DNA of 63,425 bases, the filler included, from Blastocystis sp. subtype 4 (Eukaryota): assembly GCF_000743755.1 (NCBI RefSeq). It is 32 parts of 32 records of this genome, joined end to end, with 100 filler letters (N's around TTAATTAATTAA, not from the genome) between each part and the next. Parts side by side here need not be neighbours in the genome. Positions count along the whole stretch, not along the records: positions 47,398 to 49,114 come from NW_014568781.1; 31 more parts are not named here. The stretch is one strand, 5' to 3'. A program made the translations under genes and the position numbers. How positions within the stretch are numbered: the first letter of the stretch is position 1; the number at the start of each line of letters is the position of its first letter. Below the pieces are notes generated by a model. That model was not told where the DNA came from, did not search any database, and saw only the letters and a program-made list of their open reading frames with translations. Positions 2,000-59,865 of the stretch are shown here, piece by piece.

Positions 2000-2354
2000 A
2001 ATGAAGATTTGAAGAATGTAATCAACACTACTCGAGATGTTGCTAGTAATCTGAAGAATGAAGCGATTGATCAAGTGAATGGTAGAGGAAGTGTATTTAG
2101 AGGTGGATCTGTTGTTTCAAGTGTAGAATGTGGAGGCGGATTGCATGTAAGAAGAAGTAATATCGATGATGAGGTAGATGATTATGATATGATGAGTGTT
2201 GGTGTGAAAGTATATGATGATAGTGTTACAAATGATCCAGTAGAAGAAACAGAGAATAANATACAAATCATTGAATGGTGTAGGAGGATTTCGAACTCAA
2301 GCAGTTAGTTGTGGTAAGTTGCGTGCTGTTAGAACAAAGAGATTGGCATTGTAA
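2000..2354 (+). CDS. C-terminal part of an intronless protein with GRG/GGS/GGG motifs and a basic tail (possible capsid or core protein tail)
   Basis: ORF 2009-2308; an ambiguous base at 2260 may hide an indel giving ...YKSLNGVGGFRTQAVSCGKLRAVRTKRLAL*. Confidence 0.35.
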
Positions 2355-2384
2355 CATGATAATGTTTTGTTGTTGTTTGACTTT

Positions 2385-2537
2385 GTGTGTTCGTTTAGTG
2401 ATTTGAACATGCCAGGAGTTCGTATGAGTGATTTGCGTTCGGTTCAGTTTGATGTGCGTGATCGTCATGGTGAAGTAGTATCAATCGCTTCTGACATCTA
2501 CATCAACATCCGTTTGAGTGTGAACGGAAAGGTTTAA
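2385..2537 (+). pseudogene. C-terminal fragment of penton (minor capsid)-like protein
   Basis: Translates VCSFSDLNMPGVRMSDLRSVQFDVRDRHGEVVSIASDIYINIRLSVNGKV*; homologous copies near 47835, 58425 and 34240(-). Confidence 0.6.
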
Positions 2538-2569
2538 TTTAATCTCGATTAAATGGTTGTTAAGATGAT

Positions 2570-3270
2570 TATTCACTTTGGTTGATTCACTTTGTGAAAA
2601 TGCAAAATCTATGATTTTGGTGTAGTAGGGTGTAGTAGGTAGTGTAGTAGCTTACAAAGAAGTAGGCTACTACACTAAAAAGCCCATAAACTGGCTCATT
2701 TATGGGGATATTCTTTTTATTTATGAGGGTTTAACTGACTTATTTATGAAGGTGTAGTAGGTGTAGTAGGTGTAGTAGCCTGTTTTTCAATTCGCCAAAA
2801 CTTTTTGGAGGCTACTACACTACTACACTACTACATCCTCATAACAAGTCAGTAAAACCCTCATAACAAGTCAGTAAAACCCTCATAACAATAATCAAAT
2901 CCTCATAAATGAGCCATTTTATGAGGGATTAAGTGTAGTAGCCTACTTCTTTGTAAGACACTTCACTTTTCACAATAATCACAAAATCTCATTATTGATG
3001 ATAAAATAAAATCTTCTTGATAATAATCATGATTATGTTTATTCACTTTGATTGATTCACAAAATAGTGAATGAAAATCTATGATTTGGTGTAGTAGGGT
3101 GTAGTAGGTAGTGTAGTAGGTTACAAAGAAGTAGACTACTACACTTAAACCCTCATAAACTGGCTCATTTATGGGATATTCTTTTTATTTATAAGGGTTT
3201 AAGTGACTTATTTATGAGGGTGTAGTAGGTGTAGTAGCCTGTTTTTCAATTTTGCAAAGATTTTTGGTAG
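2570..3270. repeat. TGTAGTAG-rich direct/inverted repeat array (A - inverted A' - A)
   Basis: Perfect 26-bp inverted repeat 2651-2676 / 2932-2957; unit ~2570-2810 repeated directly at ~3040-3265; related copy at 48049-48232. Confidence 0.9.
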
Positions 3271-3680
3271 AATTAAGTAGTAGTGTTTTGACGCATGTTA
3301 CATATTTTTATTATCCAGACAAACCGTCGCAAACATGGGCCTCCAACCCTGGGTAGCTATACAGGGTTAACCCTACCAGACAAAATCGCCACGAAAATGC
3401 AGACAAAAAGGCCCATAAACAAGCTCGAAAAGGCAGACATTTTGATCATAATTTGGAAACATATCCAACCCATTTCAAGTCAAATCATGGGCAACAATCA
3501 AGCACAAAATAATTGACACACGTTAACAATGGCTTACAATGGTCAGCAACCCTACCAGCAATATGGGACAATAATTTTGCCGTTGATTTACCTTACATTA
3601 TTAACAATGGTCAACAATGGCTAACAGTGACAGACAAAGTGAAGAACATATATTTTGTTGTTAATTCTTTCTAGCAATAA

Positions 3681-3908
3681 ATGCATTATTCAATAATCAT
3701 TCAAGGTAAACCATCAAATGGATCATTCACATGGGATAATCCTTACCGTTTTAAAAATCCATACATTACTATGATGAAGGTACTATTAACGCCTACTTCT
3801 ACCGCACTATTTTCAAACATTGATCAAACCAATACTGTATCTAATGGTAAAGGAGAATCTGTAGTATTTGAGAAAGGATATTATACTCTAGCTGAGATAA
3901 TCGCTATC
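3681..3908 (+). CDS. N-terminal part of penton (minor capsid)-like protein, 3'-truncated
   Basis: SFTWDNPYRF..MKVLL..FSNIDQTNT...VVFEKGYYTLAEII matches the N-terminal pattern of Polinton/adintovirus pentons; TAAATG start context. Confidence 0.55.
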
Positions 3909-16479: not shown

Positions 16480-16760
16480 TATAACTGAATCAAATCGCGT
16501 TTTTATTGACATATAAGAATAAGCTATCTTCCGTGTTTCTATCCAGTTATATGAATAGCAAAATTAGCGCATATTTCTAGTCACACATTTTGCGGTTATT
16601 CGTCACTCCGTTTACTGTACCATCTTTAGTGTCAGAAAGTTTGTTTTACTTTGTTCACGCTTACTTAACCATTTTGCACTCCTTCTTTTGGTATCAGCTC
16701 AGGGAGGTGTGGCACCAAGCACTGTACCCTCCACAGAGCACGTAGCGCCTCAGATCTCGA
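16480..16760 (+). mobile_element. Conserved non-coding module (putative element end), copy 1
   Basis: Homologous to 48255-48540 and 58740-59035 (ATCTTCCGTGTTTCTATCCAGTT; TTGCGGTT(A/G)TTCGTCAC); GC-rich hairpin-like end. Confidence 0.6.
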
Positions 16761-20440: not shown

Positions 20441-21511
20441 TGAGGATCTATCATATCAGCTCACACAATGCATACTACCGAACATCTCTTCGATAAGAAA
20501 CATATTACTTGAATTGACTTATTATATGGATGCATACAATGGATTGTAATCAAAACAGTTATTACAGTAGTCATAATCCATCAATGAGTTAGAGAGGATG
20601 TGCGTTCAGTAGTATATAGTGTAAGCTAATGATTAAGGATTATTAATAATTGAGATAGAAGATAAGACTGTAGAAAAAATGATTTGAAAAAGTGATTTCC
20701 ATTACTATCTATTGAGTGAATATGGGAATGGATTGAGAAATGAGAATAGAGATGATTCCCGCGGTATGAATAAGTGAAATGAAATAAGCCAATAAGTCAT
20801 AATAACATAGAAAGAATGATTGAAAATAAGAATATGAGTGTAGATAATGTTGAATCAATATCAAAGAAGATGAATGGAGTAGAATGGAGAATGAAGTGGA
20901 AAGAGTACTTGAAAGAGAGTGTANNNNNNNNNNNNNNNNNNNNNNNNNNNNNNNNNNNNNNNNNNNNTTAATTAATTAANNNNNNNNNNNNNNNNNNNNN
21001 NNNNNNNNNNNNNNNNNNNNNNNTTCTAATAAACCAATATTCCATTTCATACTATCATTTCTTTCATCTTCAACACTTAGTATCATTCTTCTCTCATTCT
21101 ATTGTCAATAGAATCTCATCAACTATCTATTCATCTCTTTCAATCATTTCTGTTGATTCTATCTATTTCTGCTGTTACAATGAATCTGTGATAACTGATA
21201 GAATGATAACTGTCCATTTCATTGATACCAGATCAAAGAACTCTTATTCAACGATTCTCTCATCTTCTATTCAATTTGAGAATCATGAATAGAACAAACA
21301 AGAAGAGTCGAATCACAAATGAATCCTCCTCTCATTGAACTACAAATGCGAATAGGAAGAGGATTGATTAAAGGATTCTGTATCATATCAAAATGGATTG
21401 TTTCAGAATAGAGAATAAAGAATCATATTGCTTTCACTATCAATCCAAGAAAGAAACCTCATAATTGCTTTCATTCAAACAACAGTATTCAATATCACTA
21501 CTATTACTCAT

Positions 21512-22710
21512 TCAAAGACTAGATTCATTCAATCTCTTTTTGACACTTTCATTAATCCTATATTCATTCACTGCTTGTACTGATACTTTCCTCTTCCAGT
21601 GAACAAAGAACATATCAGTTGTGTAATTCACTTTAATCATTGATGCTCCAGTCACCATATGAACTTGAACAAATGGTACTCTTAGAGGATTCACAATCAT
21701 CTTTTGTCTCATTGTAGTGATGATTGGACCCACTTTATTACAAATGGATTCAATATCCAATGTATTATTGAAATCCCATTGTCTACAAGCAACAAATGCA
21801 CTATTCACTTGAAAAGAATCAGCATTTGGATATAATTGATCATATTGTTTAACTACATCGATTACTCTCATTTCTGGATTGATAGGCATAAAGAACTCAT
21901 CAACATCATTGAAGATCACAAACTTGGATACTCTTCTATATCGACGATTACATGATGATAATGCCACTTGTTGTTCAAGAAAAGATAAATGATGAATATA
22001 TGAGAACTCTAGAAGAGAAAGAACACCGATTTCAATGTATTCATGAAGTTGATCCTTCCAATAAGAATACAGATCATTGGCATAGATTATGTTCAATACC
22101 ATTAGCAAGATGATATTCCATCCATGATCGTACCAATGATAAAGGAACTGATGATATGGATGTACAATAGATAATACATTGGTTGTTCTGGTTTAGGAGC
22201 ATAGGGTGCAACAAAGACATACGAATCAGTCACATTTGGTATCTTGATGGAAAACTCAGAATCTCTTGAAGAACAGGATGAATTGAATACAAATGAGGAG
22301 AGAATGACATGTTTGTGATGATCTCGTCCAATTGAATTATCAACTGTTTCTCCATGGAAGCAGAGATTGGATTATTCAAGAACTGTTGTTTATCTGATGA
22401 TAAGTATCGAAGATTAAACACTGCATCCAGATGAAAATGATTATTCTCACAATAGGTGAAAGAATCCATCAGAATGGGTATTTGTCTTTCAGAGGCATTA
22501 GACACTTGATAATAATAAGTAGATGGTAATGATCTATCTGAATGCCATCAATAATCGAAGTGAGAAATGAATGGTATTAATGGAACTATCCACTCTATGT
22601 TGAATTCCTCTTAAGAGAATACCGAGAATATGAGAATAAGTAGTGAAGTAGGAATAATGAGAGAACAAGCAATAGCATTGAATGAGAATAAACACAGTGA
22701 CAATAGTTCA
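21512..22710 (-). CDS. GT92/DUF23-like glycosyltransferase, spliced
   Basis: QQVALSSC, VIFNDVDEFFMP, KMIVNP..VHM motifs; N-terminal TM segment. Confidence 0.65.
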
Positions 22711-22969
22711 TTTGGAAAGTATTCCTTTCTAATGAATATCACATATGTGATTATTCTATCTCATTGATCAAAGATGCCATTCAACTCAATCTCATCAATA
22801 CCACAAACATCACCATTCCTATTAACAATCCACATACTACAATCAATTTCAATAATCATATTCAACTCCNNNNNNNNNNNNNNNNNNNNNNNNNNNNNNN
22901 NNNNNNNNNNNNNTTAATTAATTAANNNNNNNNNNNNNNNNNNNNNNNNNNNNNNNNNNNNNNNNNNNN

Positions 22970-30662: not shown

Positions 30663-32200
30663 NNNNNNNNNNNNNNNNNNNNNNNNNNNNNNNNNNNNNN
30701 NNNNNNTTAATTAATTAANNNNNNNNNNNNNNNNNNNNNNNNNNNNNNNNNNNNNNNNNNNNCATGAACACAATCATAAGAAGAGTGAACTAGAAGATGG
30801 AATAGTCATTCTTTCTATTGTGGTACAGGATGATCTTAAGAATATGATTCATAGTAGTATTAGATTCTTCTCTGATGTAGGTCTGATCACTGAAGAAAGA
30901 GTATCAATCTGTGTCATCTCATGCTAATCTGTGTCATATTCGATTCAATCACAAATACACTTGGAAATCAGTTGTACTTCCTTGATCATCTTAACAAACT
31001 CACTTACAATAACTATTCAAACTGATCGAAGTGATCAAGATGTGGGATGAAGAAGAACAGGATGCTTGAACTATACTATATATTTTGACACTAATTGATC
31101 TGCTGCTAACAAGGTGTCTAACAATTGCGAGTAACATCAAGAATGGACTAGTATTGAAGTAGGGTGTTGAGGTACGTCACATATAGATTTCAAGGTCCAT
31201 AACTTGGTTCGAAAAAGCAGACAATCAGCCGAATGAAGAAGTGATAATGAAGATTCCTTTACCATTTCGAGCAGATTGCTGGGATAACAATAAACTGAAT
31301 GAATTGATTCTTCAATCTAATAAGATATACTATACAATAATCATTCAAATCACACCAATACTGTCTTCAATACCAAATGTGAATTAATCATGTTTGATAA
31401 AGGATACTATACCTACCTCACATCATTGTTATTCTCAATCAAATGCAATACATATCACTCTCAATACCAATTCTGACTCCAGTTANNNNNNNNNNTACAG
31501 CTTCTATGAATGCTCCATCTCCTATACGTATCCTTTGATTTGTCAATGGATTCAATACTCTCTTTCTTTCCTTCGATTCTTCTTCTTTACTCCATGAATC
31601 TATTTTGAGATCATATTTGTACTTTTTGAATTCAATCTATCGTGTTTCACTGACTTATACTTCATATCATGACTCTTGGGATTGAGATTTGATATGTAGA
31701 ATTCCTTATTCCTTTATTTATACAAAGTGAAATCACATCTTTAAATGAGTTCAAAACTGACATACATCAAACAGGAATATTCGTTCATCTTATCAATCAT
31801 TCCCATCTGTCTAACATTCAAACGTTCATACTTACCAAACTTGTATTGAATACACTTCCTGTTAAGATCAAATCTACTCTACCATCCTTCAGATCCATTA
31901 TCATTTAGATTAATAAGGGCTTGAAGAGAAGAATTCGAAATGGTATCTCCAGTCATATTAACTATCTTGAGAGTTTGAATAAAGATAATTGGGAGTATTC
32001 TTAGGAATCATCTCCATGGTTGGAGTTCTTGTAGAATGAATTGAACAATTCTTCTTTGAGATTACAGTGAATAAAAAGAATCGTTCGTATCATATAATTA
32101 AGGATTAGATTAATATATTCAATACTCTTCCAATTCATCGATACACTTTGATTGCATTTCTCAACAAACAGATTCTTAGATGAAGGATTGTGAAACATGT

Positions 32201-32614
32201 TCAAATCTTATGGTACTGTTTATTCTTGAGTGTTTTCAAGGATCCCTCGTGAGTTCTTATCTTAATTGAAACCATTCTAGCTATAACCAGAACTACAAAA
32301 CAGAATAGGATTACACCACCAATAATCATCAATACTATCGCCAAGATTGTGAATCTCTTCACAACAAGAGTCAAGGTTGTCTCTTCAGATCCCACTTCAT
32401 TCCATACTTGAATAGTGACATCAATAGGATCTCCTAAGGTACTTGGAATACCTGAAATCTCTCCTGTCATCTCATTCAGTTCTATACCATCTCGAACAAC
32501 ACTTGAAGTCATACAGAATCGAGGAGCATCTCCCTGAACACTGGGAATCACTGTAAACGACTTTCCTCGAACCAGTCTGTATGAAGACTTCGGATACTGG
32601 AACAGAGACAAAGG
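32201..32614 (-). CDS. C-terminus of Ig-like surface protein with single transmembrane helix
   Basis: GEISGIPS repeat, TM segment and basic tail. Confidence 0.7.
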   Translation of the reverse strand, partial: PLSLFQYPKSSYRLVRGKSFTVIPSVQGDAPRFCMTSSVVRDGIELNEMTGEISGIPSTLGDPIDVTIQVWNEVGSEETTLTLVVKRFTILAIVLMIIGGVILFCFVVLVIARMVSIKIRTHEGSLKTLKNKQYHKI

Positions 32615-32714: not shown

Positions 32715-34201
32715 TGATATTGGAAAGTGATGATTGATGATTGGATTTGAATTAGATATTCCATCACTCACTTCAGAAGGAATGCAATTGAGAAATACTT
32801 ATTCTTTTGGTATGATGAAAAATGAAAACTCATTCAATGAAGTGAATGTTTTGAGCAGTTCAAGTATGATTGATTGATTGATAATGATTGAGATGCTGAT
32901 GCTCTTGAATACTACATCATTTTCAACAGTCACGTTACTCCTTCTGAACGCTCATTATCCTTACATCCACCAGCATTCTGGATATCAAGAATCGATCAAA
33001 TGAAGGAGATATCTACTTCTGTTGAATCCATTGTGATTCAAGGCGGAGTAGGAAAGGAAGAGAAGTCATTTTCTCTCTCAGATTTTCCTTCTCTCATCAT
33101 TCTTGAAATGGGATGTGGTGCATTTGAGAAGTGTCATTCAATAGTATTTGAGAGTATGAATGATAAAATGAATGACGAATGAGATCTGATTCAACTTCAA
33201 TCCATTACTTTAGGAGAAGTAGCTCTATATGGTGATTTAAATACACTTAAGTCGAATGTATTGATAATGAAGAGTATGAATGATAATGATATTGATTGAT
33301 CAGATCTTCCTTCTCTGACTCTTTTCAAAGGAAATGGTTACAGTTTCGTGAATATAAGGATATTGGAGAGTGATGATTGATGATTGTATCTGAATTAGAT
33401 ATTCCATCACTCACTGAAGATGGTATTAAGATGACTGATGATGCATTTAGTAAAGTGAAAGAATTGAATAGTTCGAGTATGATTGATTGACTGATAATGA
33501 TTGAGATGCTTATTCTCTTGAAGATTGTATCATTCTCAATAGTGGTGATATAACTCCTTCTGAACATCTATTGTCTCTTCATCCATCAGGATTCTGGATA
33601 TCAGACGTTAGTCAAATGGAACAGATTTCTAATTCTGTTGAATCGATTATGATACAAGAAGGAGTAGGAAAAGAAGAAGGGAGATTCATTCTCTCCAATC
33701 TCCCTTCTCTCATATCCATTCAATTATATCGTACTGCATTCGAGACGTGTGATTCAATAACATTTGAGAGTAAGAATGATTGAGTGAATGATGAATGAGA
33801 TCTGATTCGACTTCAATCCATCAAACTTGGATATGGAGCTCTTAAGGGTGGCTCTCACTTTGGTTTTGGTTTTGCTCTTGCTGACTCGAATGAATGATAA
33901 TGAAGAGTATGAGTGATAATGATGATTGATTGATCAGATCTTCCTTCTCTGACTCTATTCAAAGGAGATGGATTGCATTTCTGTTGTGTACGGAAAGTGA
34001 TATTGGAGAGTGATGATTGATGATTGTATCTGAAATAGACATTCCATCACTCACTGATGAAGGAATACAACTGAATAGTGCATTCAATGATGTGCAAGAG
34101 TTAAACAGTTCGAGTATGATTGATTGATTGATAATGATTGAGATGCTGATTCTCTTGATCAATTCATTCGACAGCATAGTTGGATAATGCAAAACAAGTA
34201 G
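32715..34201 (+). CDS. LRR (BspA-like) tandem-repeat gene, many short introns, possibly decayed
   Basis: Repeated ~570-bp unit (DIPSLT.., VESIVIQ.GVGKEE, DLPSL). Confidence 0.55.
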
Positions 34202-34239
34202 AAAAGGTAAAATGAATGCAAACATAGTAGAATCTGTTT

Positions 34240-34397
34240 GTTGAATATGTTAACTGGATGTGATGTAGATGCCAGAAATGATTGACACCATTTCATCATG
34301 ACGATCATTCACATCAACTGACCCAAACGCAAATCATTCATAGGAACTACTGAGATGTTCAAATGACTAAACAAAGCACACATTGTTCAATCTCATT
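34240..34397 (-). pseudogene. Decayed penton-like C-terminal fragment
   Basis: Reverse complement aligns to 2385-2520 and 58415-58550 (TTTAGTCATTTGAACAT, GATCGTCATG, CATCTACATCA). Confidence 0.6.
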
Positions 34398-34645
34398 CAT
34401 CTCAAGTCAATAATTATTTGATTCATTCAAAGTGTATTCTCCTGAGGAATACAATTCAAAAGCAGAGAAGATGAATGAACCAAAAGAAGCAGTTCTATTC
34501 ATAATCAAGAAGAATGCAAATGTTGGACACTTTGTTGGTGTGTTCNNNNNNNNNNNNNNNNNNNNNNNNNNNNNNNNNNNNNNNNNNNNTTAATTAATTA
34601 ANNNNNNNNNNNNNNNNNNNNNNNNNNNNNNNNNNNNNNNNNNNN

Positions 34646-34796
34646 CACAAACACGTAATGGAGGAGCATCTCTATTCAACTTACCATGTTCATACAATGC
34701 TTTGAATATCGATTCTTTGTTACGCAAAGGAAAGATCACAGATCTTCTATTCTTGTCTGAGAAATCGATTGGAGTTGCACTCAATTTGCTTTTCAT
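34646..34796 (-). CDS. Intronless hypothetical ORF start (putative element gene)
   Basis: MKSKLSATPIDF...; starts within the palindrome CATTTACTAAGTAAATG. Confidence 0.4.
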
Positions 34797-34807
34797 TTAC
34801 TAAGTAA

Positions 34808-35140
34808 ATGAACAAGTTGTTTGAGATACAAAACAAGTATGTGATGGATTGGCGAATTCCTGTCAATCTTCATATTATTGCCATAACAGTACTTACGAAA
34901 CGGATCAACAAATCGATTCNAATATGTTGTGATCAAGTTGAAAGATGTAAGGAACCAGCAAAGAAATCAGGATCATAAGCTATGTTCTCTTGTGTTGATT
35001 CTGGTATTCATCATCTACTCTCATTCACACAATGACTCTTTCAGAACGGTGTTTCATCCACATACTCGGTCACCATTAGGATGTAACTTATGAATGTGAA
35101 ATGGTGTCATTCTCAGGGAAACTTCGTGTTGCCAGGGTGT
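34808..35140 (+). pseudogene. Decayed small penton-like ORF
   Basis: MNKLFEIQNKYVMDWRIPVNLHIIAITV...I.ICCDQVE then frameshifts, ending ...EMVSFSGKLRV. Confidence 0.3.
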
Positions 35141-35345
35141 ATGGTTGATTTCATGAAGAAATCACCCTACTATTCTCCAACAGGAATAGTGGTTGGGTTC
35201 ATGAGCTGTCAAGCAATCACTCGAGACTTGGACACTCAGGAACTAGTCCAAGGCCTTATGGTATGGACGTTAATTGCCCTCTATGGCATCTATGTAGTGT
35301 TTATCAACAACCCTTGTTTTCATTACTAACAAACATTTCCATCAC

Positions 35346-37013
35346 TTCTTTCGTAGATAATAACTCCACTGTCGAATGAATCGATCAAGAGAATAAGAAT
35401 CTTAATCAACATTAATGCTTTAATCATACTTGAACTATCCAATTTGTTCACTCTATTGAATGCGAGTTTCAACTGTATTCCTTGTTCAGTGAGTGCTGGA
35501 ATGTCTAATTTCAAATCAATAGTATATCATCACTCTCCAAAATCACTTTGCCTATGTACTTGAAATTCCCATAACCTTTGAATAGAGATAGGGAAGGAAT
35601 ATCTGATTAATCAATAATCAGTTTCATTCATACTCTTCATTATCAATCTATTCGATTTGATAGTATGTTCATCACTTTCAAGAGCATCTTTTCCAAGAGT
35701 GATGGTTTGAAGTCGAGTCAGATCTCTTTATCATTCATTCAATCATTCATACTATTGAATACTATCCATTTACAATTACAGAATGCACAACGATCTAATT
35801 GAATGGATATGAGAGAAGGAAGATTCTTACATTCAAATGATTTATACCAATAGAATGAATCCTCTCCAAAATGGATTTCTCTTAACTGATCACAATTCAT
35901 TATCAAACATTTGCTTCCTATCCAATTCTTAAAGTCTAATGAAAAACTCATATATCCAATGGTCATACTCTTCAATTCATTCAATCCATCAATTACAAAC
36001 TGTTTCACTTCATCAAAACAATTATCTCCAATCTCCAATCTCTCAACTCCTTTCAAGCAGTCAGTATTAAATACACTCAAATTATATCCATAACCATTTC
36101 TAAACCTTTTCATGCTTCCCGCATACTTACCTTTCATCCATATTCCACTTCTCACTACTTCTCCATTCTCATTCAATTCTTCTCCAGCTCCATCTCTCAA
36201 TCCATTCTTCCATTCTCCAATATACACTGGATTCATTTCTTTGAATTCACTTCCATATCCATCTCTCTTTCCATTCTTCCATCCACCGTAGTACAAAACA
36301 TCCTCTCCATCAATTCCATACTCACTTCCTTCTCCTTCTCGAATGAATCCTTTCATCATATCTCCTTCAAGTCCTCCTTCATATACTCTCATTCCATTAT
36401 CATCATATTCTATCATCAAATCTCCTTTCCATTCTCTCAATACTCTCATCATTACTCCATTCTTGTATTCACATTCTCTAACCAANCTTCCTCCTTCATA
36501 CTCAAAACACTTACCATTCTTTCTCCATTCATTATCATATTCACTCACACTCAACAAATCTCTATTCTCATTTATCTCTGAATAGAATCCTTTCATTCCT
36601 TCTCGTTCCTTCAATTTCGAAACTCGCTTTCCATTTCGATACAATCCTCTCCATATCTCATTTCCATCATCATCATATTCTATCCACATTCCAACTTCCT
36701 TTCCTTTTGATACTCTTCCTTTCAATACTGTTCTACCATACTTATTCCTCTTTATCACTTCTCCTTCACATTCATCATTCACAAACATCATTATCATAAA
36801 CACTGTTCCATTCTCTCTCACAATCAATCCAATTCCTTCTTTCTTTCCTTCTTTCATTTCTACTCTCATTCTGTATCCATTATCATCTATCATTAATCTC
36901 ATTATTGCTTCTCCATTCAATTCATCACCATTCTTCATTTCAACACTCTCAATTTCATAATCACCAAGGAATTCAAGACATGAACTACAATTCCTAACAT
37001 TGATGTTGCTCAT
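35346..37013 (-). CDS. MORN-like plus LRR repeat protein, spliced
   Basis: YYGGWKNGKRDGYG, YIGEWKNGLRDG, IGDNCF..IDGLNELKS. Confidence 0.8.
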
Positions 37014-37439
37014 ATCAGTCTAAGAATCAATGTTGTTTACATATTAATGAAAGCATAGTCAATATCAATACTAATTCTGTCATCATTCATGCGACAATTC
37101 GGATCCCCAAATACGCCATTCCACATTAGCCCATTTCATTCATTTCAATCCACATTCACTTTCATTCATATCTCACTATTCTACTATATTCTACTATCAT
37201 CTCTTCATTCCTATTCAATATTACTGAATACAATCACGGGAATATCATTATCATCATTCATTACTCATATCATTCATTTCTTATTTCCATTTATATCTAC
37301 ACTCTCATATCATATCAATTCTATTCATATCTCACAATTCATGTCAATCACTTTCTCACTTATTTCCAATCACATCAATTTGTTATCATTTCATTAATTC
37401 TCATCCATTTATTTCTTCATCACTAATTCTTTCATATGA

Positions 37440-37941
37440 TTGTTGTTGATTGTAGTATCAATCATCTCATTCTATTCTTTACATTCTGTTTCATTCTTCA
37501 TTCTACTCTCATTTCTAGTTATCCTTTCTTACTCTATTCAATGTTCATCTAATCAAGATTATGTTAAGATCACTAAGAAAACTGGTAATTATCCTAGTCA
37601 AGAGTCATTTGAGATTGTATCTGGATCATCTACTCTATTCACTTCTCCTTCATGTGTTTATAGTAATCAACAATATGTGTATGAAGTCTGTTTGAATGCT
37701 TCTTCTAATCATATCTACACTCTTATCATGAAAGATTCAGCTAGTGGGGGATGGTGGTATGATGGATTTATCTCAATGAATGATATCAATGATAATACTA
37801 TCTTCAAGAACATCATGAGAGAGGGTGTTAGTGAAGAGAGTAATCAATTTGCTCTCTATTCTCCTATCAATAAGAATGATACTTGGAGATACAGTGATAG
37901 TTATCATTCTCTTTGGAATACCAATTCATTCAATGATAATC
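37440..37941 (+). CDS. Ig-like surface protein family, N-terminal fragment
   Basis: Close paralog of 6790-7250 (CSSNQDYVKITK, ESFEIVSGSS). Confidence 0.7.
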
Positions 37942-38041: not shown

Positions 38042-39274
38042 ACAGTTCCTGCAGGAACTCAATTCACATTCATCAGACAAGAAGAAGAAGAATCAGGTGT
38101 TGAACCACATGTGTTTACCTTAACTCAAAGTTCTACGTGTACAAATGGTGGAGCTTCCTCTGGATTACTTAGTCAAATCAGAGGGTTGATTGGTAGTTAC
38201 TATAATAACATTGGTGGTGATTTTGCATTCACTTCATTTCTGATTTATGGTAAAGCTCATTGTTCATCTATTCGAGCTGGAGGATCTTATGGTGTTTTCA
38301 AGTTTGGAAGAGCAGGAGAAGGAAGTCCTGAATTGTTGGATTATGTAACACTACCAGAAACATTCCTTTCTTCAGAATGGTATGTATTCAACAAAGTGAA
38401 TCCCACATTCACACTTCCTAAAGGATACTATACTCAAGAAGAGGAATGTTCATATGTCAAATCAAGTGTTGAATCTTTGAATGTGTGGGGTACAGTGATT
38501 AATAAACCATGTTGGAGTACTGTATTAGAAAGAAGGATTCAAAGGAATACAGGTGCTACATGCTGTTCATTGACATCTCATAATCCATTGTGGTTAGTGT
38601 ATGAAGTTAACAATCAAATATTCAATACTGGATTATATACAAGTCTAAATCTTCATTTCATAGATCCAAATGAAGATATCAAGATGAATGTTAATCAACT
38701 TGAATACACAGGACCAGATGGGACATCTTGGATGGTTGGATTCACATCTCAACCTACTACACAAGAAGATTGTGTTGAACAGATGAATGCGATGTTTGCA
38801 AGCAAGGGATTAGCGATCTCATGGAAGAAACAAGAAACATGTTACTCAATTGTAGCTGATGAACCATTCAAACTTGGTGGATCATTCTTCTCAAATAGTC
38901 TATTGAAATCAATCAAACCAGGACATAACCAGACATCCCAAGTATGGACATGGAATTACTACAATGATGCTGTTTATGAGATTAGTGGATATGAAACCAT
39001 TATGTCAAAGAAGGTTATCAACATCACAAATAGTAAGGAAGTGGCAAAGGTGTATTGTGATCTTGTGAAGAGTTATCATAGTTGTGATTGTTTGTTGACA
39101 AATCTTCATATTGTGGATTTGAAGAAGAACTACAGTTCATCACTGGAGTTGATTCCTATCAAAACATCCTTCAGAACAATCTCTGTAAAGGTAAGAGATC
39201 TAGATGATAAGGATTATTCATTTGCAGGAACCATCTATTTGAACATGTTGATATCATCTCTTCAACAGGATTGA
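38042..39274 (+). CDS. Large intronless penton (minor capsid)-like protein with insertion domain, 5'-truncated
   Basis: FTLPKGYYT and C-terminal INIT..KVYCDLV..LLTNL..IPIK..RTISVKVRDLDDKDYSFAGTIYLNMLI, the pattern of Polinton/adintovirus pentons. Confidence 0.65.
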   Translation, partial: TVPAGTQFTFIRQEEEESGVEPHVFTLTQSSTCTNGGASSGLLSQIRGLIGSYYNNIGGDFAFTSFLIYGKAHCSSIRAGGSYGVFKFGRAGEGSPELLDYVTLPETFLSSEWYVFNKVNPTFTLPKGYYTQEEECSYVKSSVESLNVWGTVINKPCWSTVLERRIQRNTGATCCSLTSHNPLWLVYEVNNQIFNTGLYTSLNLHFIDPNEDIKMNVNQLEYTGPDGTSWMVGFTSQPTTQEDCVEQMNAMFASKGLAISWKKQETCYSIVADEPFKLGGSFFSNSLLKSIKPGHNQTSQVWTWNYYNDAVYEISGYETIMSKKVINITNSKEVAKVYCDLVKSYHSCDCLLTNLHIVDLKKNYSSSLELIPIKTSFRTISVKVRDLDDKDYSFAGTIYLNMLISSLQQD

Positions 39275-39370
39275 AGCTTTGCTAATTCATTTTACTACAA
39301 GAACATAATGTTCTTCTTTTCTACGTAGTAGAAATTAGCTTTGCTAATTCATTTTACTTGTAGTAAAATG
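39275..39370. promoter_or_regulatory. Intergenic direct and inverted repeats ending at an ATG
   Basis: 22-bp direct repeat 39275-39296/39337-39358; CATTTTACTACAA (39288-39300) is the reverse complement of TTGTAGTAAAATG (39358-39370). Confidence 0.6.
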
Positions 39371-39851
39371 CTATTCAGTACAAACAATGATAAAGCAATA
39401 TCAATCAATGATCCAGAAGCTGTGTATAAGAAGATTTCAGATCCAAGTTGGAAGGCACTATTCAACACAATTCAATCGAATGGTTGGCTGGGCAAACTGA
39501 TTTCTTCTATGATCATGCGATAGATAGTGATGTGATTGTAGCTGTTCAACAACCTGTTAACAATGCCAAAGTGGTTGGTATACTGGAAGGATATACAGCG
39601 ACAAATCACACATTTTCAGATAGAGACAATGATCTGAAAGATGATAATGGATTTGTGCATGAAAGTGAAGCATTAATCCAGTGTCTAACAGAGAACAATC
39701 TACTTGATCAACAACTCCAAGTGTTCCACAAAGTGAATAAGGATCATCCACATCGAATTGTATGGTCTAATGATCAGATAACTGAGAAGATATTCTATGC
39801 ATCTGATTATCACTTCAAGGAATGTTATTATGTCATTGTGAATGATACTCA
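39368..39851 (+). pseudogene. Intronless hypothetical element gene, one frameshift, 3'-truncated
   Basis: MLFSTNNDK... shifts near 39490 into TDFFYDHAIDSDVIV... Confidence 0.45.
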
Positions 39852-41724: not shown

Positions 41725-42939
41725 NNNNNNNNNNNNNNNNNNNNNNNNNNNNNNNNNNNNNNNNNNNNTTAATTAATTAANNNNNNNNNNNNNNNNNNNN
41801 NNNNNNNNNNNNNNNNNNNNNNNNAAGTATGATGAGTTTGTTACAAACATGATTACTAAAAGAGATATCTATTGATTCACACAATAGTGAAATGATTATC
41901 ACAAGTATGTGAAGTGATATCGATCTTCACTACAACACTATTGATTGTCAAATCGATATCATCTGGAATGATATCAACTATATCATTCACTCAATCTGAT
42001 TCACCATCTGCTATCACAGTACTTATCACTTATTCACTTAATCGAATACAATTCTTCATCTTCATTCAAAGGCAAAATGCATCAATGAAGTCAGAACAGA
42101 GATGGCTGCTCTTACATTTCATTTCACTCATTCCTTGGATTTCTTCAATCTACTGCTGTTGATTCTAGATTATTGTATTTGTCTCTATCTTGTATTGAGT
42201 TCATGTATTCTCATCCCTCATGGATTGATCCAATCTGATCAAAGGAATGGTAATATGATGTTTCTGACACTTTGTCCATCCTCATCACCATTCCTAACTC
42301 CAATTCGGATGATATCTCCTTTTTGTTTGTTATCATATCAATAGAAGAATTGAACAATCTGAGGGAGGATCAATGAATGGAAGTTGTATGTGTTGAGATC
42401 ATTCTTTGAAGGGATTATCTCTACTCACATATACTATTCAATATCTTTACATACTATCATCTACTCTATGCATTTTGACATTGTTAGTGATTGTTTGTAA
42501 TCCTGTTATCATCATCATCTCATCTATATCCATCATTCCATTATCATTCCATCATTTTTGTACTTCATTCTATTATACAAATGTTGTTATGAGGTGGGAA
42601 ACAACAAATGATTCCATTTGTATTCTGAATATGATAGTCTCATCACCTCTTTAACTAATTACTTCCTACTACCACACCTTCTGTTATCATTCATCATAAT
42701 CTCTTCAGAAACAGTCATATTATCACTCAACTTGAGAATTCAAGATTCACAGATTATCCTTATTCATTATGTTGGTATCATACAATGAATCACATCATCA
42801 GTTGATTGTCTTATCTCAACTCTACACACAACAGAACAACACATTTAGTGGATAATCACTTACAGGTCTAGAAATCAATGATCTTTGTATTTCAACAAAC
42901 AAATGGACTAGACATAAGAACTTCGGCTTCGAATAAACG

Positions 42940-43593
42940 ATTCAAGAGCAACAGCATCTACATCTTATCTTCAAGTGTTAATCACACTCGTTGCATTCAA
43001 TTCATAAACACTAGCAAATTGATAATCACCACTGCTAGTGATAATACCTGAGGAAAGAATTGGAATATCTACTCTCAACTCAATTCATTACTCATACTCT
43101 CCAAAACAACAGATCCAATATACCTGAAACAATACGAAGGGATTCGCATTGACACAAGAAGACTCAGATCTAATCATCATTCTTGCTTCTATTCATCACT
43201 CTTCATTGTTAGAGTGTTTCGATAATTGAAAGGAGCTGTGCTATTCGATTTACGATCATCTCTCAAATCCCCTTGAAATGCTCCTTCAAACAGATACATG
43301 GATTGAAAACATGTCAGATCTGATTATTACTCCTTCATTCAATCATTACTCTCAAATCGAACTGAATGACAACCACCAAATGAATATCTTCCAATAGATA
43401 TGGATTCAAGTGAAGGTAAGTCTTTCAATCATTTGTCACACTCATTCTTACCAATCAAATCAACATCATAAGCATAATAGAAGTTATAAGATACATCAAC
43501 AGTTCCAATGGAGATGGTTCTGAGTTGAGGAAGATTGGATAGATCGAATACACAATAATCAGAGAATGAATATCGTCCAATAATCAATTCTCT
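42940..43593 (-). pseudogene. LRR (BspA-like) gene fragments
   Basis: DLPSLES.., VQFES and DL..LQS exon-intron units like other LRR genes in the window. Confidence 0.35.
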
Positions 43594-47297: not shown

Positions 47298-47649
47298 NNN
47301 NNNNNNNNNNNNNNNNNNNNNNNNNNNNNNNNNNNNNNNNNTTAATTAATTAANNNNNNNNNNNNNNNNNNNNNNNNNNNNNNNNNNNNNNNNNNNNCAT
47401 ATTCACTTCTATCATCAATACTCTTATCAATCTTCAATCAACTATCTTCATTCATTGAATAGAGAGATTCTCAAACACAACTCTATAACAATCAATTCAA
47501 TTGAGATAATCATCATGAAATCAATTTGATGAGGATCTGAATGAGAGAAAGAGTGATCAGTGAGATAGACTTGACTACTGAGAATCAACATTTCGAACTA
47601 TTCATCCTTATTGAATCCAACAACAAAATGATACTTGACTCATACAATA

Positions 47650-48012
47650 GGAGAAGTCTCATTTGTTCAAAACAAGATCATCAGTACTGGTGTGAAAGGA
47701 AAAGAATCAGTAGATGTATCAAATGGATTGAATTGTATTCGAATCTACAGTAATCTGGTAAAGCAAATGATATCATTTGAAACAAGTCCATTAGTAGATT
47801 GTATGATATATTCAACAATGGGATTGAACAATGTGTGTTCATTTAGTGATTTGAAGATGTGTGTAGTTCGTATGAGTGATTTGCATTGGTTTCAGTTTGA
47901 TGTGCATGATGGTGATGTTGAGTAGTATCAATCTCTTCAGACATCTACATCAACATCCTTCTAGTTGCATAGCAGCTGTGTAATCCCGATTAAACTAAAT
48001 GGGAAGGTTTAA
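47650..48012 (+). pseudogene. Penton-like C-terminal region, decayed
   Basis: VDVSNGLNCIRIYSNLVKQ...QFDVHD; homologous to 58194-58575. Confidence 0.6.
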
Positions 48013-48048
48013 TCAGTGATTCAAGTGTGTAAGATAGATAATCCACTT

Positions 48049-48232
48049 AGTGTAGTAGCTTACAAAGAAACAGGCTACTACACTAAAAGGCCATAAACTG
48101 GTTCATAAAGATTTGATTATGATTATAAGGGTTTACTGACTATATTATTTATGGAGTGGTAGCCTGTTTTTCATTCATTCAAAGTGTTTGTTGGAATTTC
48201 GGATAAGCTATTGTTTTGGAGGCTACTACACT
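48049..48232. repeat. TGTAGTAG palindromic repeat unit, second copy
   Basis: AGTGTAGTAGCTTACAAAGAA..GGCTACTACACT matches 2641-2676; unit bounded by AGTGTAGTAGC/GCTACTACACT. Confidence 0.85.
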
Positions 48233-48254
48233 GCAACAATCAACACAAGTCTAT

Positions 48255-48540
48255 ATTGTGGTCACATTACTGACACCAATCACGGTTTTGTCGATGCATT
48301 ACTAACAATCTATCTTCTTTGTTTTTATCCTATTATTATGTTGTGCAAATTAGGATATATTTTTATCACATAACTTGCGGTTGTTCGTCACCCCTTTAAC
48401 TGATCATCAATTAGTATCAGATTGTTGTTCACACTATTTGACCATGTACATAACTATTGATTCAATCATTTTGGTGTCAGTTTTTCAGGTCGAAGGTAAC
48501 CGAACTACAGAATCGGCTGTATTCGACCTGAAAAACACAT
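48255..48540 (+). mobile_element. Conserved non-coding module, copy 2, ending in a 15-bp-stem hairpin
   Basis: TTGCGGTTGTTCGTCACC core; inverted repeat GTTTTTCAGGTCGAA 48480-48494 / TTCGACCTGAAAAAC 48522-48536. Confidence 0.65.
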
Positions 48541-48629
48541 GGCTTCAGGCCTTTCATTCTCCATCTCTCCATTCTCAATACATCCTTTAACAATACGAAT
48601 TGGGATTAAGTACAGATAACAAACACTAT

Positions 48630-48980
48630 ATTCTGTAAACAAATGAGGATGACGAATTACAATCTTCTTCATATTCTCCTTTTGAGATTCAGAATACATT
48701 GTCATTGAATCATTCTTCACACCTGATTGTTTTGATGTGAATCTCTTGAAATGACCAACTCTCAAATCATCATAATGAAGGAAAAGGTGCTTCCCCCCAG
48801 AAAAGGTCCAATGAATAGTTACTATTCCATCAAATGATGAAAACACAACATTCTTCTTTCTATGGTCTCTGTCCACAAACACCTGGTAGGTGTATACATC
48901 GAATAGATCTCCTTTCACAAAGTGTTCTTCTCGATTCAAACAAGAATTGTTTCCATCTACCATAAACACATTCCACATCT
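48630..48980 (-). CDS. GT92-like protein, last exon (polyA-created stop predicted)
   Basis: KNVVFSS..TIH..LRVGHFK; paralog of 57739-58093. Confidence 0.5.
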
Positions 48981-49214
48981 ACATTGAAATCATAGTCATT
49001 TCATTACATGTGCATGATCATAACCAGAATTAATCAATGAAGATAGAATTGGTTTGAAATTGAAAGGACTTGATACACTATGAATGTATTCATCAACATC
49101 AACAAAGAATAGAGNNNNNNNNNNNNNNNNNNNNNNNNNNNNNNNNNNNNNNNNNNNNTTAATTAATTAANNNNNNNNNNNNNNNNNNNNNNNNNNNNNN
49201 NNNNNNNNNNNNNN

Positions 49215-56313: not shown

Positions 56314-56539
56314 NNNNNNNNNNNNNNNNNNNNNNNNNNNNNNNNNNNNNNNNNNNNTTAATTAATTAANNNNNNNNNNNNNNNNNNNNNNNNNNNNNNN
56401 NNNNNNNNNNNNNAGTTCTATTCATCAACGAATCTATCGAGTCACTCATTCTCCTGCTATTCATTTCAATCTCACAACAAGATCATGTAATCAGTTTTAG
56501 TTCTTTCCTTTTGTTTTTGAAATCTCTCATTATCATATT

Positions 56540-57630
56540 CATTTGATATGTTTCATTCATACATCATCTTCATTATTCACTTGATTTCATCTCTTCTTTT
56601 GTTTCATAGTCTCAAGTATTCATTCTCTATTCCTGTTCAGAGATAGTCTTCAATATGAAGAATCATTAATCTCAACTGATATTGGTTCAATCAGAAAACT
56701 CAATCAGAGTATTGTGTTGGGATTTGGATCAGGTCAAACAGCAAACAAGCTGTTTGGAGTTGTAAGTGCAATTGTAATGTCAATGATGTTGAACATTCCT
56801 ATTGCTTGTAAGCTAGTATCAACAAATGATCAATAGATGGACCTGATTATCGCTATGAGAGCTATCTTGATATTATTGATTGTAATGGAATAGTGAAACA
56901 ACATAGAAACTACACAGAGAACAGCATATTGTTGTCAATATCAAATGATTGTTTCTTTGAGAAGCATTCTGTAGTACAACAGATGATAAACCATGATTTG
57001 ATGTCTCTTCTTCCATCTGGTGATATTCCTGTCAGAACCAATTGTCCTTTCTTCAAGTGGTTAACATTGAATCCTCAGAATCGAAGAAGACTTGTTCAAT
57101 TGGGAATGTTGAATCACATGAATATGAGTGTTGATGAAATGCACCAACAGGTCATGTCAAGAATCCTTCAGAATCATATTCTCTTCAAACCAGTTGTTCA
57201 AGAGATAATCAGTGAGAATGAGAATACATTCAAGAGTTATTCCTTGTGTATACATATCCGAACTCAAGGTCCTAGCTTTCTTCGTTATGATGATCTACCA
57301 AATGTCATTCGATGTATTGATGATTATCATCTCAATACTTCCAATGTGTTTATATGTAGTGATAACTCTACAATCCAGTCAACTCTTGGGAATATGATTT
57401 CCAATACATCTAAGATATCTTATGAAAAGACAGATGGAAAGTGGAATTTCAACACTTTGAATAGAGATAGACAATCAGTATTGTTTGCAGAAATGAAACT
57501 CCTATCAATGTGTCAAACCTATTTAGGTACTTATCGTAGTACTTGGTCATATACGAATGCTCTCCTTAGTAATGGAAGGAGATTGTTTATTGGACACAAT
57601 GCTACTTGTTCCAATACTGTGTCATTTTGA
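56540..57630 (+). CDS. Fucosyltransferase-like protein (NodZ/GT23/O-FucT fold), spliced
   Basis: GQTANKL, LCIHIRT, VFICSDN, EMKLLSMC..GTYRSTWS motifs. Confidence 0.7.
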
Positions 57631-57738
57631 TTGGTTCTGGTGTTTGAAAGAATCATTGTTTGATTATTATCAAACAGATCCTTGATCAAAGAAGAAGAAT
57701 CTTTAGAATACAATAGTGAAATCAGGACAAGAAACAGA

Positions 57739-58093
57739 TTAGATCATAAACAAATGTGGATGATGAGATACAATCTTCTTCATATTCTCCTTTTGAGATT
57801 CAGAATACATTGTCATTGAATCATTCTTCACACCTGATTGTTTTGATGTGAATCTCTTGAAGTGACCAACTCTCAAATCCTCATAATGAATGAAAGTATC
57901 TCTTCCTCCACAACATGCATAATGAACAGTGATAATTCCATCAAATGATGAAAACACAACATTCTTCCTTCTTTGAGTTTTGTAGAGAAACACCTGGTAG
58001 TTGTATACATCGAATAGATCTCCTTTCACAAAGTGTTCTTCTCGATTCAAACAAGAATTGTTTCCATCTACCATAAATATGTTTGACATCTAC
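57739..58093 (-). CDS. GT92-like protein, last exon
   Basis: Paralog of 48630-48980 with a genomic TAA. Confidence 0.5.
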
Positions 58094-58193: not shown

Positions 58194-58575
58194 ATCCTTC
58201 TGGTCCTGCTTATGATCTAGTATTTCAACAAGCACCTGATTTGCGTCGAATATTGGGATTTGATGAAATTCAGGCAAGTGGTGTTAAAGGAAAAGAACCA
58301 GTAGATGTATCAAATGGATTGAATTGTATTCGAATCTACAGTAATCTGATAAAGCAGATGATATCATTTGAAACAAGTCCATTAGTGGATTGTATGATTT
58401 ATTCAACAATGGGATTGAACAATATGTGTTCGTTTAGTCATTTGAACATGCCAGGAGTTTGTATGAGTGATTTGCGTTGGGTTCAGTTTGATGTGCATGA
58501 TCGTCATGGTGAAGTAGTATCAATCGCTCAGACATCTACATCAACATTCGGTTGAGTGTGAACGGAAAGGTTTAA
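58194..58575 (+). pseudogene. Penton-like C-terminal half, 1-bp frameshift near the end
   Basis: APDLRRILGF...PVDVSNGLNCIRIYSNLIK...QFDVHDRHGEVV. Confidence 0.65.
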
Positions 58576-58739
58576 GTTCTGTTTTACATAATCATGATTT
58601 TGTTAATGCACTTTTTATCTGTAAGTTGAGCAAGTGAATATGGTGAATTCACCAACGATTAATGGATTTCTCAAAGATCGACACCCAGACAATTCATCCT
58701 CCTTAACCTATTTGTTACCTCATAATATTCACCAATCGA

Positions 58740-59035
58740 ATTCGTGCTTACATTACTGATTCCATCCGCAGTTATAATGACACATTACTAATAACCATCT
58801 TCCGTGTTTCTATCCAGTTTTATAAACAACAAATTTGACTATATTTTTGGTCACACATTTGCGGTTGTTCGTCACCCTGTTAACTGTACTATCAATTAGG
58901 TCAGATGTTTGATTCTGCTTTGTTCACAGCCTTTGGACCATTTACATTACCATTTAGTTTCACCTTGTTGGCTTCAGCTCAAAGATGTGAAGTGCTTTGA
59001 GCCGCTGCCTCCGCAGAGCACACTGAGCTCAAGCC
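58740..59035 (+). mobile_element. Conserved non-coding module, copy 3
   Basis: Homologous to 16480-16760; hairpin GCTCAAAG..CTTTGAGC near 58977-59002. Confidence 0.6.
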
Positions 59036-59227
59036 TCTATTCATATCGTTAAGGATTCAAGAATAATCAACTCTCTTGTATCCTCTTTTTGTATCTTGTA
59101 CTCTCCCGCCAAATATGGTCCATAACCGTTACCACTGTAGAATATGATTTCAAACAGCAATTCTCCATTTTCGTCGTTATCTGGTTATTGTTTCCATTAC
59201 AGTCGAGTGATTCTTGTTGTTGTATAG

Positions 59228-59865
59228 ATGAGTGGATCAAACAGAACTCGTAATCTGTTTTTGGGTTTTATTACTGTCTTTTTGGATGATATGGGTTATT
59301 CCATTGTTGTTCCCATTCTTCCTTATTTTTCTGCATCACTAGGAGCTAGTTCTATGCAAGAGGGAGTGTTGTTTAGTGGGTATTGTTTTACCCAGATGAT
59401 TAGTATGTGTAAATCAGGCTGTTAGTATTAAGGTTATCTTATTATGGGAAGTGGAAGTGATCTGTATGGACGAAAACTCTTCTTCATTCTCTCTCTCATG
59501 GGTTCGTGCTTCGGTATGTGTTTTGTAAGTGAATAATGGTGTTAGGAGCTATCTTTCAGGGATTGTCAAAGAGTGTTTGGATGTTGATCTTTTGGCGTTG
59601 TTTAACTGGATTGTTTGCTGGTTCTCAGATTGTAACACAGGCGTATAAGCATATGTGACATATGAATGTGTAGTTTGATTGCTGATTGTACTTCTGTGGA
59701 GGATCGAAATAAGTTCCTTACGTATTTGGAAGCTGTAACTTCGGCTGCATTCATTATTGGTCCTGTGATTGGTGGTTTCTTGGGTTCAAAGAATTATTCA
59801 TTCCCTCTGTATTTCGCTGGAGGAGTTGCTGGTATTGCTTTGCTGTTCGCACTGTTTATGATGGA
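59228..59865 (+). CDS. MFS transporter, TetA/DHA1-like, spliced, 3'-truncated
   Basis: FLDDMGYSIVVPILP, GSGSDLYGRK, IADCT..DR, FIIGPVIGG. Confidence 0.88.

Follow-up and report, generated by a model that had tools for sequence, protein, structure and literature searches.

A junction between a decayed endogenous Polinton-like virus and a host gene in Blastocystis subtype 4

On a 1,717-bp contig of Blastocystis sp. subtype 4 (positions 47,398 to 49,114), the 3' end of a penton-like gene, a palindromic repeat unit, a non-coding module and a perfect hairpin stand in series, tail to tail with a host gene. The initial annotation took this order to be conserved and argued from it that the series defines one end of a chromosomally integrated element. 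We analysed the contig within its window, a stretch of 63,425 nucleotides consisting of 32 short contigs joined by spacers, together with 32 metagenome loci encoding the penton (ORFs were listed for 10 of them) and with sequencing runs that contain the stretch, among them mouse and rat gut samples. The locus is a real junction of a decayed endogenous Polinton-like virus. Its copy, truncated on the 5' side and frameshifted, is the relic of a Polinton-like (MELD) virus, and such viruses have been described from Blastocystis before. "One end" and "integrated" hold, while the argument from a conserved order does not, the repeat units being swappable and the hairpin locus-specific.

A penton fragment next to a GT92-family gene

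The viral part of the contig opens with the 3' half of a penton (minor capsid) gene on the plus strand (47688..47958), which begins at residue ~124, covers residues ~124-220 of 227 and has its frame broken near 47920, and this copy is no longer able to make penton. Its DNA is 92% identical to the intact gene of locus L001, and it is a mosaic, at 96-98% to relatives up to ~47837-47850 and 84% or less to the right. Neither penton fragment of the window has a match in Pfam. The fold of the intact 227-aa relative, predicted from 22 diverse rows, has a pLDDT of 90.5. The best PDB match of this model is the mavirus penton (E 4e-8), followed by adenovirus and Sputnik entries, and its best viral match is a MELD virus protein (E 3e-17). 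By its predicted structure the relative is a penton, a single jelly roll minor capsid protein, and the penton-like C-terminus of the initial annotation is confirmed on both counts, the fragment being present and its intact relative folding as penton. The protein cluster has 408 members, with 58 related representatives at identities down to 23%, and in the annotation of Blastocystis sp. BT1, which is described as subtype 4 (PMC10690189), the penton and neighbouring proteins lie on contigs of 485-593 kb. The penton copy in contig 58194-59865 is also broken, near its end. In one protein of the collection (P0009) a bacterial adenylate kinase is fused to a penton tail, probably an assembly chimera.

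Virus-derived pieces total ~7.5 kb in this 60-kb sample of small contigs and occur on 11 of the 32. Contigs of the same virus's genes lie at 1-1899 and 38042-39851, with fibre-like genes and the last 410 aa of a 1,139-aa penton-like protein (99.8% to L006), and scraps of viral genes (100-340 bp) lie among host genes at 21024-22869, 30763-32614, 32715-34545, 34646-37941 and 41825-43593. The window has short introns and genes with Ig-repeat and MORN domains, which together with the TGTTTGTT motif and the BT1 protein matches indicate Blastocystis. It also carries an actin-family gene (PF00022; 51151-52338, minus strand) and an intronless ADP-ribosylglycohydrolase ORF (PF03747; 40305-41378, minus strand) that is possibly bacterial in origin.

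Beyond the element lies a multi-copy host gene of the GT92 family on the minus strand (48630..49114), represented by its last exon, a 29-nt intron and a portion of the exon before it, and 88-91% identical to paralogues in contig 56414-58093, L025 and L026. The gene is convergent (tail to tail) with the element, as first noted, and its GT92-like character is borne out by an upstream exon of the L026 paralogue, which matches PF01697 (GT92) at E 2e-8. A 157-aa frame at 48508-48978 that runs into the hairpin has no Pfam match and was set aside as read-through of a stop-less gene. The polyadenylation motif TGTTTGTT of the host gene (48618..48625, minus strand) lies four nt after T48630, a spacing at which poly(A) addition is described as creating the stop codon in Blastocystis (PMC4159000), and poly(A) at T48630 would create an in-frame stop here. 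The position of the motif thus suggests that the gene has kept its 3' end intact, the insertion probably lying 78 bp beyond that predicted end.

Unitigs of 757-760 bp from two studies (47928-48687 in X1, 47931-48687 in X2) run from the penton into the host exon with 0 differences, a unitig from a third study (X6, 48464-48614) bridges 48552, also with 0 differences, and locus L015 spans 47618-48746 at 100% over 1,129 bp; one of X1, X2 and L015 may be the window's own source. The claim of chromosomal integration is upheld by this junction, spanned without difference in three studies, and by its neighbour, an intron-bearing host gene with a polyadenylation motif. The penton region is multi-copy and fragmented in all four runs examined, none of which has a contig covering all 1,717 bp. 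Contig depths in X1, which are not copy numbers, agree with a small number of core copies and an abundance of penton scraps: 15 at the junction, 7.6 on the L001 host flank, 40 for the ATPase-like gene and 43-88 or higher for penton pieces. The L001 host flank has no cover in X2, which is no proof of an empty site.

Defining the breakpoints, as had been proposed, sets the right end at 48552. On the left, a repeated host-like flank (47398..47687; 93-95% to L010, L011 and L018) is joined to the middle of the penton gene. These three loci show the identical junction of repeat and penton at 47688, and the left border is no element terminus. In L029 and L031 the same flank is joined to penton residue ~20.

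Interchangeable units, local hairpins and a shared terminus

Downstream of the penton fragment lie a locus-specific spacer (47959..48047), matched among the 32 loci only by L015, the same locus, and a degenerate half of a palindromic TGTAGTAG repeat unit (48048..48233), 69-79% identical to units in contig 2000-3908, L003 and L023. The unit reported at 48049-48232 is genuine: its inverted arms occupy 48049-48073 and 48208-48232, a perfect 13-bp hairpin lies at 48047-48086 (z -4.8), and TGTAGTAG has 26 matches in the window against 1.2 expected (17 in contig 2000-3908 and 3 in contig 47398-49114). Units of the TGTAGTAG and GGAGTAG types have their linkers and layout in common (triple repeats, a small hairpin and a long imperfect palindrome of ~350 bp) and differ in the motif, and GTGTCGAT units are built differently. 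Further units, inverted, precede the penton and the integrase. The units are most likely binding-site arrays for a protein encoded by the element, and would have spread between intergenic slots. A divergent virus lineage (83-91%; L009 5133-5284) has no repeat unit between the ATPase-like gene and the penton.

The subterminal non-coding module (48258..48479), the inner part of the terminal repeat, shares 60-69% identity with six other copies, between which identity is 70-95%, and is the most divergent of the set; in L003 the module stands inverted on both sides of a lone penton. It is followed by the perfect hairpin (48480..48536; 15-bp stems at 48480-48494 and 48522-48536, 27-nt loop), present as described, the window's only perfect 15-bp stem with a loop of up to 40 nt and stronger than shuffles (z -5.9, 0/200). 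This hairpin is confined to its locus (matched in 1 of 32 loci, the same locus), and the module is not "hairpin-ended", as its shared end lies 16 nt further on, at 48552. Four different hairpins occupy the subterminal slot, those of this locus, of L003 and the right end of L007, of the left end of L007, and of L005; a hairpin there beats shuffles at 5 of 12 ends and is missing or weak at 7. Module copies are alike up to GGCCTCAGGCCT and diverge afterwards.

What recurs is the terminus itself (type A; GGCTTCAGGCCT-3' at 48541..48552, plus strand), which reads 5'-AG from outside. Its 12 nt recur at 12 junctions (3 in the window and 9 in the loci, repeats of one locus counted once) that have TCA-R-R-x-CT in common, with the final eight positions nearly fixed and the flanks unrelated, and it is this recurrence that establishes one end of the element. 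The flanks are biased: position +1 is a pyrimidine in 12/12 (nine C, three T), and +8 is T in 11 (p 1.7e-4 before correction for 20 positions). The loci were picked by penton similarity, which biases the link between ends and penton; in the window itself, two of the three type A ends follow a penton, the third belonging to a module between host genes without penton (16480..16757, plus strand).

Of 24 sequences with a penton 3' end (20 loci and 4 window contigs, some of the same locus and six cut by contig ends), 11 have no unit after the penton, while 6 continue with a GGAGTAG unit, 5 with a TGTAGTAG unit and 2 with a GTGTCGAT unit. The order penton, TGTAGTAG unit, module and end, claimed as conserved, occurs in 3 of the 24, representing two loci (twice this locus, once L003), and among the six sequences with both penton 3' end and module the slot holds a TGTAGTAG unit in three (2 loci), a GGAGTAG unit in one, a GTGTCGAT unit in one and no unit in one. 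The TGTAGTAG unit is optional and interchangeable between copies, and both the unit and the hairpin vary independently, which the initial annotation had named as grounds for giving up its reading. Its argument from order also fails in that the three contigs it drew on are different structures. Contig 58194-59865 does lead from penton (58196-58575) to module (58744-58960) and on to a type A terminus (59025..59036, plus strand), with neither TGTAGTAG unit nor 15-bp hairpin.

In contig 2000-3908 the penton-to-array link stands in so far as the last ~150 bp of the penton precede TGTAGTAG units (one nearly full palindromic unit and a further half unit, 2616..3275), with a different spacer and no module. 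The penton piece (2384..2537, plus strand) is an internal duplicate of the last ~50 codons behind another viral gene, of 428-439 aa (2000-2351), as in L021-L024, and the contig therefore does not show the penton-side end. Set into its TGTAGTAG unit is a second kind of end (type B, 5'-AGTAGTAG; 3276..3908, plus strand), leading to the start of a second penton-like gene at 3681 (hhalign 91% to the penton family). The type B start lies behind four different flanks (window 3276, L002, L007 and L016), leading to penton genes in L016 and at window 3276, and 5'-AGTAGTAG (AGTAGT) is given as the canonical Maverick end motif (PMC8097293).

Type A ends also occur as inverted pairs. Mini-elements of ~2 kb (L003 1-2007 and L007 97-2491) carry a penton, whole or internally deleted, between inverted ends, those of L007 being 27 bp long at 97 and 2491; a 155-aa ORF in the latter is HNH-like by eye and has no Pfam match. 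A hAT transposase fragment (PF05699; L007 3080-3955) lies between a type A and a type B end. In L018 (3471-3511; also in L029 and L031) a 41-bp unit consists of two inverted type A ends and adjoins the same host-like repeat that flanks the window copy. The target-site duplications that had been proposed as a check did not appear: none of 3-10 bp was found in either of the two two-ended units (L007 and L018), whose flanks look rearranged, L007 having only a 2-bp flank match if one more base is counted in; the window locus has one end only.

Other identities were set aside. Helitrons have a 3' hairpin followed by CTRR and insert between A and T; the type A ends have CT followed by a pyrimidine in 12/12 and occur as inverted pairs. 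Elements of the hAT superfamily leave an 8-bp duplication; none was seen by inspection around 48048-48233, nor in L007 or L018, and a non-autonomous hAT element was rejected for both unit and module. L028, once counted as a module carrier, was dropped as a chance match with 3 mismatches. The repeat-unit pattern had 0 matches in viral contigs, and the 5 matches of the terminus pattern in viral contigs and 120 of the module pattern in genome contigs are at chance, the longest alignment to the element among these 125 loci being 39 nt. Rfam gave 0 matches in 7 loci, and a promoter and terminator scan, whose models are bacterial and inapplicable to this host, was at chance level.

Linked viral genes and the origin of the locus

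In other copies this penton is linked to ATPase-like, protease-like and integrase genes. It stands behind a 434-aa P-loop gene and a gene of 1,024-1,139 aa in L001, L006 and L009, and in L001 these core genes are followed by penton, unit and module, then by the same type A terminus and host genes. The 434-aa protein, a packaging ATPase candidate, matches only DEAD/ResIII in Pfam, below cut-off. L023 carries KilA-N, an rve integrase, a protease-like gene and the 428-aa gene, behind which stand just the last ~50 codons of the penton; its integrase (2311-3315; PF00665, E 1.3e-9, 38.7 bits against a cut-off of 32.6) is absent from the window and tied to the penton via shared flanking genes. The protease-like gene has no Pfam match, and its Atlas features are at 0.94-0.96 to clusters in which 13% and 62% of the members carry Peptidase_C5. 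Terminal inverted repeats were observed in short derivatives only (L003 modules, L007 ends). The ORFs listed for 10 of the 32 partial loci, the longest locus being 9.6 kb, contain no protein-primed family B polymerase and no double jelly-roll major capsid protein that could be recognised. Searches of viral contigs gave no relative for the penton, the ATPase-like protein, the integrase or the 428-aa gene, the last entered as a 20-protein alignment. The 428-aa gene has relatives at ~45% identity (proteins P0142, P0150, P0153, P0162, P0165 and P0166) on contigs 28.2-29.0 kb long; these are possibly complete free genomes of a wider virus family, and 28-29 kb would be a plausible genome size for the virus.

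From the identity of the penton, the terminus shared at 48552, a junction present in three studies and the broken frame, we read 47688-48552, with a probability of roughly 0.78, as the truncated, frameshifted end of a Polinton-like (MELD) virus 78 bp past the predicted 3' end of the host GT92-family gene, likely inserted by the element's rve integrase and later, likely through recombination with a host repeat, cut short. The integrase would have acted on the 5'-AG end with a weak target preference, and everything left of penton residue ~124 would have been lost afterwards, the cut-back likely occurring by recombination with the host repeat. Palindromic units and the subterminal hairpin may have been exchanged between copies by recombination, and both exchange and deletion may have been helped by the internal duplicate of the penton 3' end and by the units.

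Against this reading, the ORFs listed for 10 of the 32 loci include neither a polymerase nor a major capsid gene, and no 3-10 bp duplication was found in either two-ended unit. Against it also stands the type A end itself, which has only 5'-AG in common with the (AGT)2, (AG)3 or (AC)3A end motif, whereas type B at 3276 in the same genome carries it, so that type A could belong to another mobile element. The main rival, distinctly unlikely in our estimate, builds on this last point: type A end and module would form a separate cut-and-paste transposon (non-autonomous, Pack-type), inserted into viral DNA or having captured it, and the virus's own ends would be AGTAGT. A canonical AGTAGTAG end that leads to penton genes (L016, window 3276), the solo module at 16480-16757, the 41-bp double type A unit in L018, L029 and L031, the hAT fragment (PF05699) near one copy in L007, and the +1/+8 flank bias, set against EMALE virophages described as without sequence preference (PMC8547959), all suit such a transposon. 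However, no type A-bounded unit seen contains a transposase, the hAT piece lying outside L007 97-2491, and L001 joins viral core genes straight to a type A end, which moreover begins 5'-AG. Nor was there a duplication of 3, 8 or 9 bp, the sizes that belong to Harbinger, hAT and Mutator.

Two further readings are far less credible still. If penton, TGTAGTAG unit and hairpin module formed a fixed, conserved element end, the identical order in L003 and the identity of this locus across studies would be expected; the contents of the slot nevertheless vary among the six sequences with penton and module, units also lie upstream of the penton and of the integrase, with L009 having none upstream, and the 15-bp hairpin belongs to 1 of 32 loci, the same locus. 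That the series is an assembly chimera of collapsed repeats is just as improbable, even though the contig is short, the multi-copy penton region fragments in all four runs, the copy is mosaic (96-98% left of ~47850 against 84% or less to the right) and no contig spans 1,717 bp. The unitigs of two studies pass from penton into host exon over 757-760 bp with 0 differences, the third study bridges 48552, L015 spans 47618-48746 and the left junction recurs in L010, L011 and L018; a chimera across 47928-48687 is unlikely. Returning to the Polinton-like virus, we tentatively suggest, with doubt prevailing, a new kind of end in the Blastocystis family: a fixed 12-nt tip (5'-AGGCCTGAGGCC) with target preference, a slot with at least four unrelated hairpins, palindromic arrays whose TGTAGTAG/GGAGTAG motif swap on an unchanged scaffold would make them specificity cassettes for replication or packaging, and 2-kb penton-only mini-elements (L003, L007) that might be satellites moved by the full virus.

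Relation to known integrated viruses

Integrated Polinton-like viruses are common in protists and one has already been reported from Blastocystis, so that a decayed end is unsurprising; noteworthy are the non-canonical end, the swappable hairpins and repeat units, the flank bias and the penton-only mini-elements. Exact, testable borders are now given for a virus family in the commonest gut protist, and the virus pieces explain assembly breaks at these sites. How Polinton ends are recognised is little studied, and the motif swap on a common scaffold, together with the flank bias, gives a way into this question. Internal repeats, tandem insertions and mosaic copies are known in this virus group (10.64898/2026.10.13.758929), and the egovirus preprint, as far as its available text goes, deals with other viruses. 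A literature search whose coverage excluded most subscription journals found no description of these ends or units.

As described for Mavericks/Polintons (PMC8097293, PMC6431247), the elements here combine rve integrase and penton genes with protease-like and ATPase-like candidates, begin with 5'-AG, carry inverted terminal repeats a few hundred bp in length and survive mostly as decayed copies. They differ from those descriptions in the type A tip AGGCCTGAGGCC, which is not (AGT)2, (AG)3 or (AC)3A, in the absence of a 6-bp duplication in L007 and L018, and in that neither PolB nor a major capsid protein was seen in the 10 of 32 loci. With EMALEs (PMC8547959) they share integration into protists, truncated copies that keep their flanking terminal repeats, penton genes in fragments and insertion near host repeats, and the mavirus penton, the best solved-structure match of the penton here, is a likeness to mavirus-like EMALEs. 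No virophage major capsid protein was seen here, however, and type A ends have a target preference, whereas EMALEs are described as having none (PMC8547959). Rumen virophages share the gut habitat and have linear genomes with terminal repeats (PMC4409740); a rumen virophage was rejected as the identity of this element, since those in the consulted part of that report have neither penton nor integrase, both of which are present here.

The closest system is the MELD viruses, reported from Blastocystis with PolB and integrase (PMC8502044; also 10.1101/2022.05.25.493380). In the accessible part of the Blastocystis MELD account (PMC8502044), compared here by description and not by sequence, no chromosomal junctions, ends, repeat units or mini-elements are described. 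The virus of that account (Starrett et al., PMC8502044) shares with the one described here the host genus and an integrase accompanied by divergent virion genes. MELD virus proteins are the best structural matches of the penton, one of 236 aa (28% identity, E 3e-17) and a 996-aa "putative penton" (E 7e-15), and this pair echoes the 227-aa and 1,139-aa genes found here.
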